Assembly: GCA_903907555.1 (NCBI GenBank)
Contig: CAIVOO010000090.1
Span: 1 to 24,000, forward strand
DNA: 24,000 bases
Source: an uncultured archaeon
Lineage (GTDB): Archaea > Nanobdellota > Nanobdellia > Woesearchaeales > CAIVOO01
Reading direction: 5' to 3'
The notes below the pieces were generated by a model. The model had not been told where the DNA came from and did no database searches. It saw only the letters and a program-made list of their open reading frames with translations. Every line of letters starts with the position of its first letter. Position 1 is the stretch's first letter. Positions 10,166-14,202 of the stretch are shown piece after piece. Position numbers and translations under genes: made by a program.

Positions 10166-11446
10166 ATGCTTGACATCAAGTTTGTCAGGGAAAATATTGG
10201 CGTTGTAAAGAAGAATCTTGAGAAAAGAAGAGATCCTGCCATAATAAAACTTCTTGAAGATGTTCTTAAGAAAGACGAGCATTGGAGAAAGCTCAAAATA
10301 AAGGTCGATTCACTTAAGCAGAAGAGAAATGAAATATCATTAGAGATTTCTAAATTAAAGAAAGAAAAGAAGGATGCTTCTGCGAAAATAAAGGAAGCTG
10401 CTGATATTCCTAAAGAAATTGCACAAATAGAATTTGAGATGGGCGAGCTGGAGAAGCAGATAAGGGACGGGCTTATGAGAACCCCTAATATGCTTCACGA
10501 TTCAGTTCCTTACGGAAAGGATGACACTGAAAATGTTGAGATTACAACTTTCGGAAAGAAGCCAAAGTTTGATTTTGAGCCAAAATCGCACGTTGACCTT
10601 GTAGAACTGCATGACTGGGTTGATTTGACAAGAGCAGCCAAGATATCTGGAGCAAGATGGTACTTCCTGAAAGGAGAGCTTGCCTTGCTTGAGATGGCGA
10701 TAGTCAAATACGCTGTTGATTTCATGTCTAAGAGAGGCTACACTCTTGTAGTGCCTCCTTTCATGATGAACAGGAAAGCGTATGAAGGCGTAACTTCAAT
10801 GGCAGATTTTGAAGATGTTCTTTACAAGATAGAAGGCGAAGACTTGTATGCAATAGCAACATCAGAGCATCCTAATACTGCAATGTACATGGATGAAGTC
10901 TTCGACGAGAAACAGCTCCCAATAAAAATGATTGGCTACAGCACTAATTTCAGGAAAGAGGCAGGAGCTCACGGGAAGGACATGAAAGGCATATTCAGGG
11001 TGCATCAGTTCAACAAGGTTGAGCAGCTGATAATCTGCAAGCCTGAAGATTCATGGAAGTTCCATGAAGAATTATTGCAGAACGGCAAAGATTTTTTTGA
11101 GTCGCTCGGGATATCGTGCCATGTCATCAATATCTGCACAGGCGACATAGGCATTGTTGCTGCAAAGAAATATGACATCGAAGCATGGATGCCTGTCCAG
11201 AACACTTACAGGGAAGTTGTCTCCTGCTCGAACTGCACATCATACCAGGCAGTCAGGCTTAACATGAGGTATCAGAAAGGAGAAAAGAGGGAGCATGTTC
11301 ATACATTAAACAGCACATGCGTAGCAACGTCAAGGGCGCTAGTTGCGATAATGGAGAATTTCCAGCAGAAAGATGGAAGCGTGAAAGTGCCTGATGTATT
11401 GGTTCCTTATATGAATGGAGTCAAAGTTATAAGAAAAAAGAGGTGA
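10166..11446 (+). CDS. serS: Seryl-tRNA synthetase
   Basis: N-terminal coiled-coil arm (MLDIKFVRENIGVVKKNLEKRR...). Class II core: FRKEAGAHGKDMKGIFRVHQFNKVE (motif 2) and TLNSTCVATSRALVAIMENFQ (motif 3 region). GAGGTG SD upstream. Confidence 0.95.
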   Translation: MLDIKFVRENIGVVKKNLEKRRDPAIIKLLEDVLKKDEHWRKLKIKVDSLKQKRNEISLEISKLKKEKKDASAKIKEAADIPKEIAQIEFEMGELEKQIRDGLMRTPNMLHDSVPYGKDDTENVEITTFGKKPKFDFEPKSHVDLVELHDWVDLTRAAKISGARWYFLKGELALLEMAIVKYAVDFMSKRGYTLVVPPFMMNRKAYEGVTSMADFEDVLYKIEGEDLYAIATSEHPNTAMYMDEVFDEKQLPIKMIGYSTNFRKEAGAHGKDMKGIFRVHQFNKVEQLIICKPEDSWKFHEELLQNGKDFFESLGISCHVINICTGDIGIVAAKKYDIEAWMPVQNTYREVVSCSNCTSYQAVRLNMRYQKGEKREHVHTLNSTCVATSRALVAIMENFQQKDGSVKVPDVLVPYMNGVKVIRKKR

Positions 11447-11449
11447 ATT

Positions 11450-11887
11450 ATGCCTAAGAAAAAAAGAGCGCCAGTAGAAACTGAAGAAACATCATCAGAA
11501 AAGGATGATTTCGAAGACGATCCTGAAGAGCATGCAGAGGACGAGGATGAATTTGTAACAAAGATGCGAACAGGAAAGAAGGAAGAGGACGTCTACACAG
11601 AAGAAGGCAGGGAAGAGCTTGTTGATGATGACGAGATTGAGCCCTGGGAAGAGGGATATGTTGAAGGCGTGAAGGGAAACGAGACATTATTATGCAGGCA
11701 ATGCAAGAAAGTGATACAGGATTACCCTATTGAAAGAAAACTCGGGCACAACATATGCTGGTTCTGCTCAGACGAATGCGCAGACAAGTATGAAAGGAAG
11801 AAAGCCAAGATGCAGAGCGAGATAAAAGAGAAGGCTGTAAAGCTCGCAGGCAAGGTTTCCCCAGCGAAGAAAAAAGCAAAGAAATAA
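11450..11887 (+). CDS. Acidic protein with a TRASH/L24e-like zinc finger
   Basis: CRQCKKVIQDYPIERKLGHNICWFCSDECADKY is CxxC-x17-CxxC-x3-C, resembling the TRASH / ribosomal L24e zinc ribbon. N-terminus is D/E-rich, C-terminus K-rich. Starts 3 nt after the serS stop. Confidence 0.6.
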   Translation: MPKKKRAPVETEETSSEKDDFEDDPEEHAEDEDEFVTKMRTGKKEEDVYTEEGREELVDDDEIEPWEEGYVEGVKGNETLLCRQCKKVIQDYPIERKLGHNICWFCSDECADKYERKKAKMQSEIKEKAVKLAGKVSPAKKKAKK

Positions 11888-11924
11888 ATATCCGTGAAGC
11901 ACTAATGATATAGAGGTGAATAAG

Positions 11925-12092
11925 ATGGCAATGTTTCAGTGCAGAAAATGCAAATATTCGTTTAACCCGCGAAGCGGCAACACAGTCTTGCCAAGGCGAT
12001 GCCCATACTGCTCAGCAGAAGGCGCAGTGATGAGGATGGCGAAGGCAGACGATCTTATAAGGAATGTTGATGATATGCTGGAATTAGGATAA
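11925..12092 (+). CDS. Small zinc-ribbon protein (55 aa, below the ORF-track cutoff)
   Basis: MAMFQCRKCKYSFNPRSGNTVLPRRCPYCSAEGAVMRMAKADDLIRNVDDMLELG has CxxC...CxxC. GAGGTGA SD 5 nt upstream of the ATG. Confidence 0.5.
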   Translation: MAMFQCRKCKYSFNPRSGNTVLPRRCPYCSAEGAVMRMAKADDLIRNVDDMLELG

Positions 12093-12127
12093 ATATTTTA
12101 TTATTATCTAGTGACGATAAAAGAAAG

Positions 12128-12136
12128 TTTTATATA
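12128..12136 (+). promoter_or_regulatory. TATA box (ttttatata) for a leaderless transcript starting at about 12158-12160
   Basis: Centre is about 27 nt upstream of ATG 12160. No other correctly spaced TATA precedes tRNA-His. Confidence 0.4.
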
Positions 12137-12159
12137 CAAGTTATAACATACTAATTCAA

Positions 12160-12216
12160 ATGAGAAACATAACCGAGGACAAAAGCATGGCAAGTGCTGG
12201 TTTAGTTCATTACTAG
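12160..12216 (+). CDS. Micro-ORF A, 18 aa (MRNITEDKSMASAGLVHY)
   Basis: Leaderless-type ATG. Paralogous to micro-ORF B, sharing the exact 14-mer gctggtttagttca (12196-12209 vs 12439-12452). Translation is unproven. Confidence 0.3.
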   Translation: MRNITEDKSMASAGLVHY

Positions 12217-12296
12217 TTCTGATTTAGGTAGTTATTACTTTCAAAAATTAAAAAGTGGTTGTATTCATCGCTAGAGATTTCTATATCAAATTTTAT

Positions 12297-12368
12297 GGCG
12301 GCAGTAGTGTAATGGCAGCATATAAGCCTGTGGAGCTTAAGGACCGAGTTCAATTCCCGGCTGCCGCC
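12297..12368 (+). tRNA. tRNA-His(GTG) with encoded G-1
   Basis: G(-1)-GCGGCAG-TA-GTGT-AATGGCA-GCAT-A-TAAGC-CTGTGGA-GCTTA-AGGA-CCGAG-TTCAATT-CCCGG-CTGCCGC-C. G-1:C73 and a 4-nt variable loop are tRNA-His hallmarks. One A:C mismatch in the T stem. Confidence 0.85.
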
Positions 12369-12402
12369 CTAAACTTTAGAAAAAAGACAGGAGGAACAAA
12401 AA

Positions 12403-12462
12403 ATGAAAAGCGAAATTGAGGATAAAGCGCAGAAAAGCGCTGGTTTAGTTCACAAACCTTGA
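12403..12462 (+). CDS. Micro-ORF B, 19 aa (MKSEIEDKAQKSAGLVHKP), or the N-terminus of the HisRS-like protein via a +1 shift
   Basis: AGGAGG lies 9 nt upstream of the ATG. The ORF stops at TGA 12460-12462, exactly where HisRS homology begins in the +1 frame. Confidence 0.35.
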   Translation: MKSEIEDKAQKSAGLVHKP

Positions 12463-12568
12463 ACCTTTCAAGGGGTTTGAAGACAAGACTGGCGACAATT
12501 TATGGATAAGAAAGTATGTAGAAAGAAAATGTGCAGAAATTCTGGAAAAAGAAGGCTATGCAGAATAT

Positions 12569-13558
12569 GTGCCGCCAACAATAGAGAGGGGTTCTACATA
12601 TGCGGATATTGTTGGGAATGACCCGACGCCTTGGACAGATGACATTGAGGCAAAAGAGACAAAATGGGAAAAGACTTATGAAAGAGAATTTTTTCCGATA
12701 AGCATAAAAGATTTTGTTAAAGAGACTGGAATAACTGAATGCAAAGGCCTCTTGCTTCCTGAAGGAACAGCTTCTTTCGCAAGGTACGCTGCAAAATGCA
12801 TAGCACAGCAGGCAGAAATTCCTGAAAAGATTTTCTATATTATGGACTGTTTCAGGAATGAGGATGTCACAAAACTGACTTCGGAAAAGAGGAGAGCTTT
12901 CGGGCAGATAGGCGTAGAATACCTTTCTGGGAAACAAGAATCGGATGCAGAAGTTGCTGCCATAGCCTGCAAGATTGTGAATGAACTTGGCGTGGATAAA
13001 AAGTTCATAACAGCCAGAGTGAGCAATGTAGAAATTTTCAGGGGGCTCTGCAAAGAAACAGGAATGGACAATGATGAAAAGGTCAGAATGAAAACTCTCA
13101 TTGATCGCTTCTCGAAGTTAAGGCTGCAGGACCCTTATGACAGCGAGCTTCAGGGAATCAGAGAAATGGTCTGGAAAATTTCTGGAAGATACAGAGCGAA
13201 CTGGAACAAGCTTCTTGAAAAAGATACGAAAGCCTCGGACTTTGCAGGGATGCAGCTTGAGCAAATGATTGAAAATATTGAAAGGACTGGTTTCAAAGCT
13301 GTTTTCGATGCTTCGATGATCAGGGGTTGGGAATATTACACAGGACCAATCTTCCAGATAGATGCTGGCGATTTTCTGGAAATAGCTGGCGGTGGAAGAT
13401 ATGACAGGATGGTAAACCAGTTCCTGAAAAAGTATGGCATAGAAAGGGAGCTTCCTGCCACAGGGTTCGCATTCGGAACTGAAAGGCTTGTCAATGTTGT
13501 AAAGAGATATGCAACAATTCCGAACGAATATACTGTAGCTTTCAGGAGGAAGAAATGA
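12569..13558 (+). CDS. HisRS-like class II catalytic core without an anticodon-binding domain (HisZ-like paralog); 5' end unresolved
   Basis: Motif 2: CFRNEDVTKLTSEKRRAFGQIGVEY. His boxes: RGWEYYTG and GGGRYD. GFAFGTERL near the C-terminus. The same frame is open from 12449 and encodes the expected N-terminal region (LEPFKGFEDKTGDNLWIRKYVERKCAEILEKEGYAEYVPPTIE), yet has no ATG/GTG/TTG before GTG 12569. Confidence 0.75.
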   Translation: MPPTIERGSTYADIVGNDPTPWTDDIEAKETKWEKTYEREFFPISIKDFVKETGITECKGLLLPEGTASFARYAAKCIAQQAEIPEKIFYIMDCFRNEDVTKLTSEKRRAFGQIGVEYLSGKQESDAEVAAIACKIVNELGVDKKFITARVSNVEIFRGLCKETGMDNDEKVRMKTLIDRFSKLRLQDPYDSELQGIREMVWKISGRYRANWNKLLEKDTKASDFAGMQLEQMIENIERTGFKAVFDASMIRGWEYYTGPIFQIDAGDFLEIAGGGRYDRMVNQFLKKYGIERELPATGFAFGTERLVNVVKRYATIPNEYTVAFRRKK

Positions 13559-14202
13559 AGGACGCCATTATTATCGGAATTGGGGCCGTAGAGCAGCACG
13601 GCCCTGCTTCTATTTTTACGGATTTTGTAATCGTTGACACAATAGCTAAAGCAATAAGCGAAAAAACAGGAGCAGTTTATATTCCGGCAATTCCTTATGG
13701 GTACTCTGAAATTTTTATGGACTACAAAGGAACATTCAGCTTGGAACCGGAAACAATAATAGCAGTTTTTACAGATTTGCTGCGTTCTGCAAAAAGACAG
13801 GGATTCAAGAAAGTGATAATATTGTCATCGCACGACCCAAATCTTCCAATACTGAAAACTGCATGCTACAGAGCAAGAAATTTAGGAATTCAGATACTGC
13901 TGTTTGACATTTGGGATTTTCCGGGGATAAAAAAAGTTGTTGAATCTGAATGCTGGCACGCTTGTGAAGATGAGATATCTGTAATGGAATATCTTGGATA
14001 TAAAAGCAGCAATAATGTAAAGGAATTCCCTGAGGAAATGAGAATGAACTACATAAAATTCCCTTTAGAAAAAAACAGAAGATCTGAGAGCGGGGTTTAT
14101 GGAGACTTGACAAAGGTTAGCGCAAAGAAAGGTGAGAAAATATTTGAAATAATAACAGAATCATTAATGAAAATAATTAAACAAGAGTGGTTTACTGTAT
14201 AA
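13555..14202 (+). CDS. Creatininase/MftE/ArfB-family amidohydrolase
   Basis: IGAVEQHGP..TDFVIVDTIA...IPAIPYGYSE...KGTFSLEPET...VIILSSHDPN follows the creatininase-family pattern (GS.EQHG, D, PyG.S, GT.sl, nGHGGN-like). ATGA overlap with the HisRS-like stop. Confidence 0.7.
   Translation: MKDAIIIGIGAVEQHGPASIFTDFVIVDTIAKAISEKTGAVYIPAIPYGYSEIFMDYKGTFSLEPETIIAVFTDLLRSAKRQGFKKVIILSSHDPNLPILKTACYRARNLGIQILLFDIWDFPGIKKVVESECWHACEDEISVMEYLGYKSSNNVKEFPEEMRMNYIKFPLEKNRRSESGVYGDLTKVSAKKGEKIFEIITESLMKIIKQEWFTV

Follow-up and report, generated by a model that had tools for sequence, protein, structure and literature searches.

Organization of the locus

The 24,000-nucleotide (nt) stretch of an archaeal contig analyzed here (the window; CAIVOO010000090.1) contains a tRNA-His gene, a gene resembling that of histidyl-tRNA synthetase (HisRS) and a creatininase-family gene, with one very short open reading frame (ORF) on each side of the tRNA (Table 1). 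The HisRS-like gene has no usable start codon of its own and opens in the +1 frame of the second short ORF, at that ORF's single His codon. This arrangement of a short leader, a His codon and a gene in the +1 frame, called a cassette below, recurs in related archaea, and we interpret it as a putative programmed +1 frameshift site that would couple expression of the operon to the charging of tRNA-His. The two micro-ORFs had been described in an earlier note on this DNA, made from the sequence alone, and both are confirmed.

The earlier note had also recognized the TATA-like box ahead of ORF1 but had placed it about 27 nt before the ATG, where we measure 23 nt. A homologous box lies at an equal distance ahead of the ORF1 homologue at the related locus L090, and the window's box probably drives a transcript with a short leader or none. 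Similarly, the Shine-Dalgarno (SD) sequence and ATG of ORF2 were correctly identified, with a spacer of 8 nt rather than 9. ARAGORN places tRNA-His at 12298-12369 and Rfam at 12298-12368 (59.2 bits), and G-1, facing C73, is encoded at 12297. This tRNA does lack a well-spaced TATA element, as had been claimed: the nearest one, TTCTATATC at 12279-12287, is only about 10-18 nt upstream, too near to serve the tRNA. At L090, where no tRNA occupies this place, the homologous element is about 50 nt upstream of the ATG of the second leader; tRNA-His thus seems to have entered between a pre-existing promoter and the leader that belonged to it.

The two micro-ORFs share a 14-mer, GCTGGTTTAGTTCA, whose copies lie 243 nt apart, just as the earlier note reported; it occurs exactly twice, at 12196 and 12439, with both copies in one frame. 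By itself, a single exact pair of 14-mers would not be a surprising find in 24 kb of AT-rich DNA, and matches with up to three mismatches occur at chance level. What lies above chance is the arrangement of leader, His codon and +1 ORF, not the repeat.

Table 1. Features of the tRNA-His/HisRS-like locus, in window coordinates
Feature	Position	Strand	Sequence and remarks
TATA-like box	12129-12136	+	TTTATATA; 23 nt 5' of the ORF1 ATG (12160); read from the sequence
Leader cassette 1 (ORF1)	12160-12216	+	MRNITEDKSMASAGLVHY, then stop
Cassette-1 junction	12205-12211	+	GTT-CAT-T (Val, His); from the anchored alignment of 26 sites
+1-frame ORF after cassette 1	12206-12274	+	FITSSDLGSYYFQKLKSGCIHR, then stop
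Third, internal copy of the junction motif	12263-12269	+	GGT TGT ATT-CAT-C; end of the remnant ORF
tRNA-His	12297-12369	+	Includes G-1; anticodon GTG, 7-nt anticodon loop CTGTGGA; ARAGORN, Rfam
SD sequence	12389-12394	+	AGGAGG; 8 nt before ATG 12403; serves the leader, not the HisRS-like frame
Leader cassette 2 (ORF2)	12403-12462	+	19 codons; MKSEIEDKAQKSAGLVHKP, then stop; 0-frame product without a shift
TAG in the +1 (HisRS-like) frame	12446-12448	+	Adjoins entry codon TTC; bars any upstream start
Putative +1 frameshift heptanucleotide	12448-12454	+	GTT-CAC-A; conserved NTT-CAY
HisRS-like gene	12449-13558	+	369 open codons; class II catalytic domain only
Site named in the earlier note	12457-12463	+	CCT-TGA-A; TGA 12460-12462 is the leader's 0-frame stop
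7-bp hairpin	12457-12473	+	CCTTGAA-CCT-TTCAAGG; 3 nt past the His codon; -9.4 kcal/mol, z = -1.3
Creatininase-family gene	13555-14202	+	ATG overlaps the HisRS-like stop (ATGA); Pfam Creatininase, 3.4e-42

The HisRS-like gene

The HisRS-like frame is open from 12449 (FTNLEPFKGFED...) and, as the earlier note stated, has no ATG, GTG or TTG before GTG 12569, its codon 41. The public gene call (P0001; window 12569-13558, 329 amino acids) adopts this GTG and is N-truncated, because such a start drops the first 40 residues, with three invariant positions (G9, F10 and D12) and the helix preceding the motif-1 proline. On these grounds we rule out GTG 12569 as the start. Among the 16 closest members aligned, the invariant features are G9, F10, D12, the motif-1 proline, LPEGT, FRNE, QxGxE, RGxxYYTG and GGGRYD; every one of them is present in the window's 369-codon frame, and members of the family measure 360-390 amino acids. 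The claim that the N-terminal segment is conserved and would be lost with a GTG 12569 start is thus borne out.

The encoded protein has a class II catalytic core with His- and ATP-binding motifs (the RPEGT-like LPEGT, FRNE, QxGxE, RGxxYYTG and GGGRYD), which we take to be those of the HisRS catalytic core. Its best PDB matches are HisRS structures (4e-35), with PDB HisZ chains scoring lower. It scores below the cut-offs of both relevant profiles: 138.9 bits against 286.75 for hisS (TIGR00442, profile positions 2-320 of 406) and 130 bits against 271.65 for HisZ (TIGR00443). The anticodon-binding domain HGTP_anticodon (PF03129) is absent from the protein.

Upstream of its entry codon the gene frame is closed by TAG, an ordinary stop codon in the window, where it ends real genes and interrupts no long gene; TAG as a sense codon, or its read-through, is ruled out on the same evidence. 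A product joined across the two frames would begin MKSEIEDKAQKSAGLV-TNLEPFKGFED... and comprise about 384 amino acids. The public calls P0001, P0014/L175, P0017/L176, P0018/L177 and P0023/L178 are each short by 30-60 N-terminal residues, because gene callers found no start in the gene frame.

The junction in related loci

Homologue loci were read upstream of the gene in three frames. The junction of leader, His codon and +1 gene is present at 14 distinct loci of the archaeal subfamily (uncultured archaea and Woesearchaeota metagenome-assembled genomes); a scripted scan recovered 12 of these, with L176 and L177 missed by the script and seen by eye, and of about 50 loci with bacterial or other homologues none had the junction in that scan. 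The leaders are diverse in sequence and length (12-33 codons), and the gene always lies in their +1 frame. Their SD sequences (GGAGG or GAGGT(GA), 6-10 nt before the ATG) fit the leader ATG and not the gene frame. Each leader ahead of a HisRS-like gene contains exactly one His, always at the junction, and it is at this codon that the conserved N-terminus F-T-x-L-x-P-x-x-G-F-x-D resumes in the +1 frame at all 14 loci. Homologous leaders include ..EAKAQQSAGCIH.. (L090), ..VKAQQGAGLVH.. (L094), ..EAKARRAGRLH.. (L176) and ..EAKALSAGCLH.. (L177). The +1 offset described for the window is thus conserved among relatives, whereas the context of the leader's TGA is not.

Start codons are missing in much of this set. 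The gene frame has no canonical start in the window, L091, L106/L178, L175, L176 and L177; L009 and L094 have a TAG adjoining the entry codon and only an internal TTG; and a GTG, TTG or ATG is available in L008, L011, L012, L090, L169 and L172. Four genes picked solely for their N-truncated public calls (P0014, P0017, P0018 and P0023) all proved to have a cassette and no start. An equivalent of the window's TAG at 12446-12448 is also present in L009, L094, L002, L008, L009 (second site) and L010. The window is matched at 100% identity across 4452 nt, junction included, by a second assembly, L001; this assembly may come from the same strain and so is weak independent evidence against an indel.

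The operon surrounding the cassette is partly constant. A tRNA-His gene lies directly 5' of the cassette in the window, L008, L011, L012/L089, L168 and L173, and the order of HisRS-like and creatininase genes is shared with L002, L168 and L173. The hydrolase-type gene that follows the HisRS-like gene varies (creatininase, Asp/Glu racemase or M42 peptidase). A canonical HisRS with PF03129 is the next gene downstream in L169, L172 and L173, and L002 has a further tRNA-synt_His gene at this position, ended by the contig edge. The window has no downstream HisRS, and its following genes are on the minus strand.

Several further observations concern this neighborhood. Taken together, tRNA-His, HisRS paralogue, variable hydrolase-type gene and canonical HisRS form a conserved "histidine translation" operon (window 12297-14202; L169, L172, L173, L002). 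In L177 inspection by eye suggests a possible tRNA-His-like gene at about 1135-1375, directly 5' of the cassette, with anticodon loop CTGTGGA and a putative intron of about 170 nt at 37/38; neither ARAGORN nor Rfam calls it. L176 has a tRNA-Arg(TCT) at 356-431, the operon position that tRNA-His occupies at other loci. The L091/L172/L175 subgroup has a protein of about 305 amino acids that ends just before the leader; its L175 copy (417-1334) matches Radical_SAM weakly (27.8 bits, below cut-off), and the L172 copy has no Pfam match on record.

Conservation of the putative shift site

The position of the frame change was bounded at each locus by the last +1-frame stop and the first leader-frame stop. 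Over all loci these intervals intersect in NTT-CAY plus two codons, which in the window is GTT-CAC-A, 9 nt 5' of CCT-TGA-A. When 26 cassette copies are aligned on their His codons, the CA of this codon is invariant (26/26) and the preceding TT nearly so (24-25/26), with C, G or A before it (Leu, Val or Ile); NUU-C is present in 24 of the 26 copies, and CUU is a codon that re-pairs well in the +1 frame. At its third base this codon has C in 18 copies and T in 8. Because this variation is synonymous only in the leader frame, exchanging Thr and Ile in the +1 frame, the comparison indicates that selection acts on the His codon, not on the downstream protein.

Substitutions on either side of the site are synonymous in different frames: those 5' of it are synonymous in the leader frame (AAA/AAG, GCG/GCA, GGT/GGA), and those 3' of it are synonymous in the +1 frame (L094 versus L169, AAA/AAG and GGG/GGA). 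A naive codon-position count on the type-A leaders was uninformative (one-codon indel), and the synonymous changes were read by eye. The 0-frame tails past the His codon are conserved in neither length nor sequence.

Most copies in the alignment also carry an SD-like GGTGR at -12 to -8, leaving 3-4 nt before NUU, as in L169 (AGGTGAT-TAC-CTT-CAC) and L091 (AGGGGAT-TTA-CTT-CAT). GGTGR matches the SD consensus of the leaders' own start sites and may stimulate the shift. The window's hairpin just past the His codon is probably not part of the signal, because no comparable structure is kept at other junctions.

Cassette copies within one genome share an identical core of 13-19 nt together with the E/P-site codon pair (window 12196-12209, 12257-12268 and 12439-12452; L011, L090, L169), and the core differs between genomes (TTA-GTT, TGC-CTT, TGT-ATT, TAC-CTT). 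Such sharing could stem from gene conversion or from co-adaptation with the translation apparatus of the host.

Cassettes before AbrB/MazE-like genes

The same arrangement of leader, His codon and +1 frame precedes a small SpoVT/AbrB (MazE_antitoxin) gene in L002, L008, L009, L094, L169 and L173, with Pfam MazE_antitoxin matches above the cut-off for L008 and L169. This gene lacks a start codon in L002, L008 and L009. L008 and L009 have tandem sites, ATG AGA GGG GAA AAT CTT CAC A... and, 22 nt on, GTT CAC C, and where the two loci differ, the changes are synonymous in the frames expected from successive +1 shifts. As it stands, the AbrB/MazE-like genes of these loci (L008 3688-3890, L009 3790-3990) would need two successive +1 shifts, 22 nt apart.

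These loci bear on the origin of ORF1. L090 has an ORF1 equal in length to that of the window (MKTSLEDKSTISAGCIHY, then stop). The +1 ORF that follows in the window, FITSSDLGSYYFQKLKSGCIHR, resembles its L090 counterpart FIINSDLFSYLSVKDFKASRDDCIHHHC and the intact AbrB-like N-termini of L009 (FTSDSPSFISKIDSKGRISIP) and L008, so that the +1 ORFs after cassette 1 in the window and L090 look like a decayed AbrB-like N-terminus. The window's internal copy of the junction motif, at the end of this remnant, also has a counterpart in L090 (GAT TGT ATT CAT C). The earlier note had listed, as one of several readings, that the two micro-ORFs go back to a duplication of about 55 bp created by tRNA insertion. 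Since the first copy in relatives precedes an AbrB-like gene, of which the window keeps a remnant, the comparison instead identifies ORF1 and ORF2 as two copies of one regulatory device and not as debris of the insertion.

Proposed mechanism

Our data suggest, with a probability that we put at roughly 0.6, that the cassette is a programmed +1 frameshift site acting at a hungry His codon and coupling operon expression to charged tRNA-His. The parts would be read in the order in which they occur: an SD sequence or leaderless start, the ATG, a short leader (5-22 codons), often GGUGR, 3-4 nt, NUU, CAY, and the gene in the +1 frame opening at UUC. In the window, ribosomes would initiate at ATG 12403 through the SD at 12389-12394 and translate MKSEIEDKAQKSAGLV, bringing peptidyl-tRNA-Val onto GUU (12448-12450) with the His codon CAC (12451-12453) in the A site. 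When His-tRNA-His is plentiful the frame would be kept, and translation would stop at TGA 12460, giving the 19-residue peptide and no HisRS-like protein. When it is scarce, the empty A site would allow the P-site tRNA to slip +1 from GUU to UUC. Archaeal tRNAs that read NNY codons carry G34, and the slip would exchange the G-U wobble of G34 for a G-C pair. ACA (Thr; ACN or AUY across the copies) would then be read, followed by the entire HisRS-like gene, and the ATGA overlap at 13555 would pass translation on to the creatininase-family gene, which is probably translationally coupled and hence also shift-dependent.

Such a device would exert negative feedback on charged tRNA-His, low charging leading to more operon expression, by the logic of prfB at a Ty1-type site. 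We propose feedback because the operon holds tRNA-His, a HisRS-like paralogue and, in relatives, the canonical HisRS. The comparative data thereby favor one of the readings listed in the earlier note, in which a leader with a His codon senses His-tRNA. Cassette 1 would be the same device, gating an AbrB/MazE-like regulator in relatives and only its remnant here. A shift at GUU-CAC predicts the tryptic junction peptide SAGLVTNLEPFK, which would differ from those predicted for a slip at the preceding codon (SAGLFTNLEPFK), decoding of a quadruplet by tRNA-His (SAGLVHNLEPFK) or a shift at CCT-TGA-A (SAGLVHKPEPFK). The comparison establishes the build of the cassette, the missing start codons, the constant +1 relation, the invariant His codon and the gene content of the operon, whereas the frameshift, the P-site slip, a stimulatory effect of GGUGR and a dependence on tRNA-His charging are inferred.

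A number of observations weigh against this interpretation. The window's copies have only a weak SD-like element, GCTGGT (GCTGG/GGT), and their P-site codon GUU re-pairs on UUC at two of three positions, more poorly than CUU; in L106 the site CGU-CAU-C is not slippery at all, with no re-pairing. Folding of 20 junctions found no conserved downstream RNA structure (z from -1.9 to +1.6). A GTG lies three codons before TTC at 6 of the 14 HisRS-like and at three AbrB-like junctions; it may be an ordinary start in those loci, in which case frameshifting would not be universal. At L168 the two frames are related differently and the gene has a GTG start, and all loci are metagenome assemblies. In addition, one cognate codon makes a poorer sensor than the codon runs of classical leader peptides, and the feedback loop is conjecture.

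More tentatively, and at somewhat less than even odds, the comparison may point to a wider system: portable sensors of charged tRNA-His in DPANN-type archaea, in which +1 cassettes built on one hungry His codon, sometimes in tandem, would switch on the tRNA-His/HisRS-paralogue/HisRS operon and an AbrB-like regulator when charging falls.

Alternative explanations

If no frameshift occurs, the micro-ORFs could be overlapping regulatory upstream ORFs, with the genes starting at GTG or CTG three codons before TTC or at another non-canonical codon, and with TAG read through where needed. The codon at -3 is indeed NTG at 19 of the 26 sites (GTG 13, CTG 5, ATG 1), which also counts against frameshifting; gene callers chose that GTG for P0004, P0008, P0009 and P0010, and the window has CTG there (12440). 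However, at 8 of the 26 sites, including the window, a start at that codon is excluded by a TAG between it and TTC, TAG being a normal stop in the window; L091, L106, L175 and the AbrB gene of L008 have no NTG at this position (GGG, CTT, GCG); and the SD spacing suits the leader ATG. A GTG moreover arises automatically from GGT-GRN, and independent starts leave both the invariant His codon and the leader-frame-only synonymy unexplained. We therefore consider independent starts unlikely, though deserving of some weight. A functional role for the peptides is less probable again. Small peptides with a ...G-L-V-H core might be substrates, resembling ribosomally synthesized and post-translationally modified peptides (RiPPs), of a HisRS-like ligase and a creatininase (MftE-like) enzyme, the overlap being tight packing. 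The G-x-hydrophobic-hydrophobic-H motif and the KA..AG block are conserved, and the last residues of ORF1 are ..VHY in the window and ..IHY in L090, which recalls the mycofactocin precursor MftA, a peptide with a ..GVY end that is cleaved by a creatininase-family peptidase. Yet the partner enzyme varies among creatininase, Asp/Glu racemase and M42 peptidase, MftB/MftC-type genes are not consistently present, the residues past His are not conserved, and this explanation provides no start codon for the nine genes that lack one and no reason for the constant +1 phase. Of a mycofactocin-like system only the creatininase-family gene is present, at 65 bits against the MftE cut-off of 172. A RiPP-like precursor, suggested by GLVH upstream of P0002, was dropped on the constant +1 phase, the absent starts and the variable partner enzymes.

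The earlier note had proposed a +1 shift of the prfB or antizyme type at the leader stop, CCU-UGA-A (12457-12463), joining ...LVHKP to EPFKGFED. While +1 recoding remains the best explanation of the locus, this position for it appears very unlikely. The sequence is present, a stop is a classical slow A-site codon and the product would retain the G-F-x-D motif, but the stop context is not conserved in any relative, where the codons before it are unrelated (AAG, AGA, ATA, GAT, TGT, ATT, GCC, GAC, TTA). In L009 and L011 the leader stop falls within or beyond the invariant G-F/Y-x-D, so that a shift there would delete the motif and cannot be the family mechanism. It would also skip T-N-L, which matches the conserved T-x-L-x-P, a segment kept even where there is no overlap (P0002 MTNLSLEP, L010 LLTKLSP), and re-pairing from CCU to CUU is poor. 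A genome defect, that is, a 1-nt indel, an assembly error or a pseudogene beside an old duplication, has very little to recommend it. A single-base change would restore one ORF and the public annotation truncates the gene (P0001), but the 369-codon frame is intact with all family-invariant residues, and the same break occurs at the same codon in diverged species from unrelated Illumina assemblies. An indel or assembly error is ruled out as the main explanation by the identical L001 and this cross-species break. Similarly hard to credit is a purely RNA-level role in which UUCACA, which is complementary to positions 33-38 of the adjacent tRNA-His, pairs with its anticodon loop (UGUGGA) as a T-box-like specifier without any leader translation. 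In T-boxes a purine follows the specifier codon, and the window has A after its His codon, but this base is A at only 14 of the 26 sites. All His codons lie in a frame opened by an SD-ATG, and there is no conserved structure. Rfam searches over 12050-12650, at the gathering threshold and at E <= 5, returned tRNA only, with no T-box, leader or frameshift element and no other RNA family match even at these permissive thresholds.

Comparison with known systems

The putative frameshift cassette most closely resembles the site of bacterial prfB (release factor 2), with its geometry AGGGGG-UAU-CUU-UGA (then C). As in prfB, a short 0-frame ORF ends a few codons past the site and the functional protein would need the shift: the window's leader has 19 codons, TAG blocks the +1 frame as far as the site, and no start occurs in the following 40 codons, which is a +1 requirement of the prfB type. 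The P-site codon is NUU in nearly all cassette copies and would re-pair in the +1 frame to a degree that differs among them, the A-site codon would be slow and its decoding factor linked to the expressed gene, and many cassette copies have an SD-like element 3-4 nt upstream (L169 AGGUGAU-UAC-CUU-CAC, L091 AGGGGAU-UUA-CUU-CAU). The A-site codon of prfB is the stop UGA, whereas here it is a conserved CAY (His), with the leader stop three codons later and unconserved. The cassette's host is archaeal, its genes are a HisRS-paralogue operon and an AbrB-like regulator, and it occurs in two or three copies per locus, sometimes in tandem.

Among sense-codon sites, yeast Ty1 (CUU-AGG-C) is a heptanucleotide with a slippable P-site tRNA, as is CUU-CAC-A, and Ty3 (GCG-AGU-U), where no slip is possible, has a parallel in the CGU-CAU-C of L106. 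How efficiently either element shifts depends on the supply of the tRNA that reads the sense codon in the A site, as we propose for the cassette. The limiting tRNA of Ty elements is a constitutively rare isoacceptor that fixes the Gag:Pol ratio, whereas the cassette's codon is cognate to the tRNA and synthetase of the same operon, which would imply feedback. In this respect the cassette is closer to the hisL, pheL and trpL leaders and the T-boxes of aminoacyl-tRNA synthetase genes, where charged tRNA is the regulated quantity and a cognate codon lies in a short leader. It differs from hisL, pheL and trpL in having one His codon instead of a run, in that no terminator/antiterminator pair was found and in that the output would be a reading frame and not attenuation; it differs from the T-box riboswitch in lacking the T-box structure.

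According to a 2021 review (PMC8211752), the sole demonstrated cellular programmed frameshift in Archaea is that of Saccharolobus solfataricus fucA1, a -1 event, and no cellular +1 case is given for Archaea. The same review notes rare CAC codons beside the fucA1 slippery site. The two systems are alike in that an archaeal gene lies in two frames with CAC codons near the site; fucA1 differs in shifting -1 on A-AAA-AAU, with a downstream stem-loop, no known regulatory role and a single lineage. In the accessible part of a large 2016 review of frameshifting, the terms histidyl, "tRNA synthetase" and "His codon" do not occur. HisRS is absent from a 2026 preprint covering 208 complete Nanobdellota genomes, in which such events are scored as assembly frameshifts, and our literature search found no description of the cassette.

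If the wider sensor system suggested above is real, Archaea would have their first cellular programmed +1 frameshift, and for the first time an aminoacyl-tRNA-synthetase operon would be autoregulated through recoding at the codon cognate to it. A +1 cassette conserved in an archaeal tRNA-His/HisRS operon would add a third way of coupling a synthetase to charging, besides T-boxes and leader-peptide attenuation, and would constitute a natural, compact sensor of one aminoacyl-tRNA. The family is mis-annotated in public databases because gene callers truncate or mis-start its members (P0001, P0014, P0017, P0018, P0023), and such "frameshifts" are tallied as assembly errors.

Neighboring features

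Upstream of the locus, a seryl-tRNA synthetase gene (SerRS, 10166-11446) precedes two small genes. The first (11450-11887) encodes a 145-residue protein with a very acidic N-terminal half, a Cys-rich C-terminal half and no Pfam match, and the second (11916-12092) a 58-residue zinc-ribbon-like protein with weak Pfam matches only. A tRNA-Met called by ARAGORN at 2036-2105 on the minus strand matches the Rfam tRNA model weakly (33.9 bits, model positions 8-63), unlike the window's other two tRNAs.

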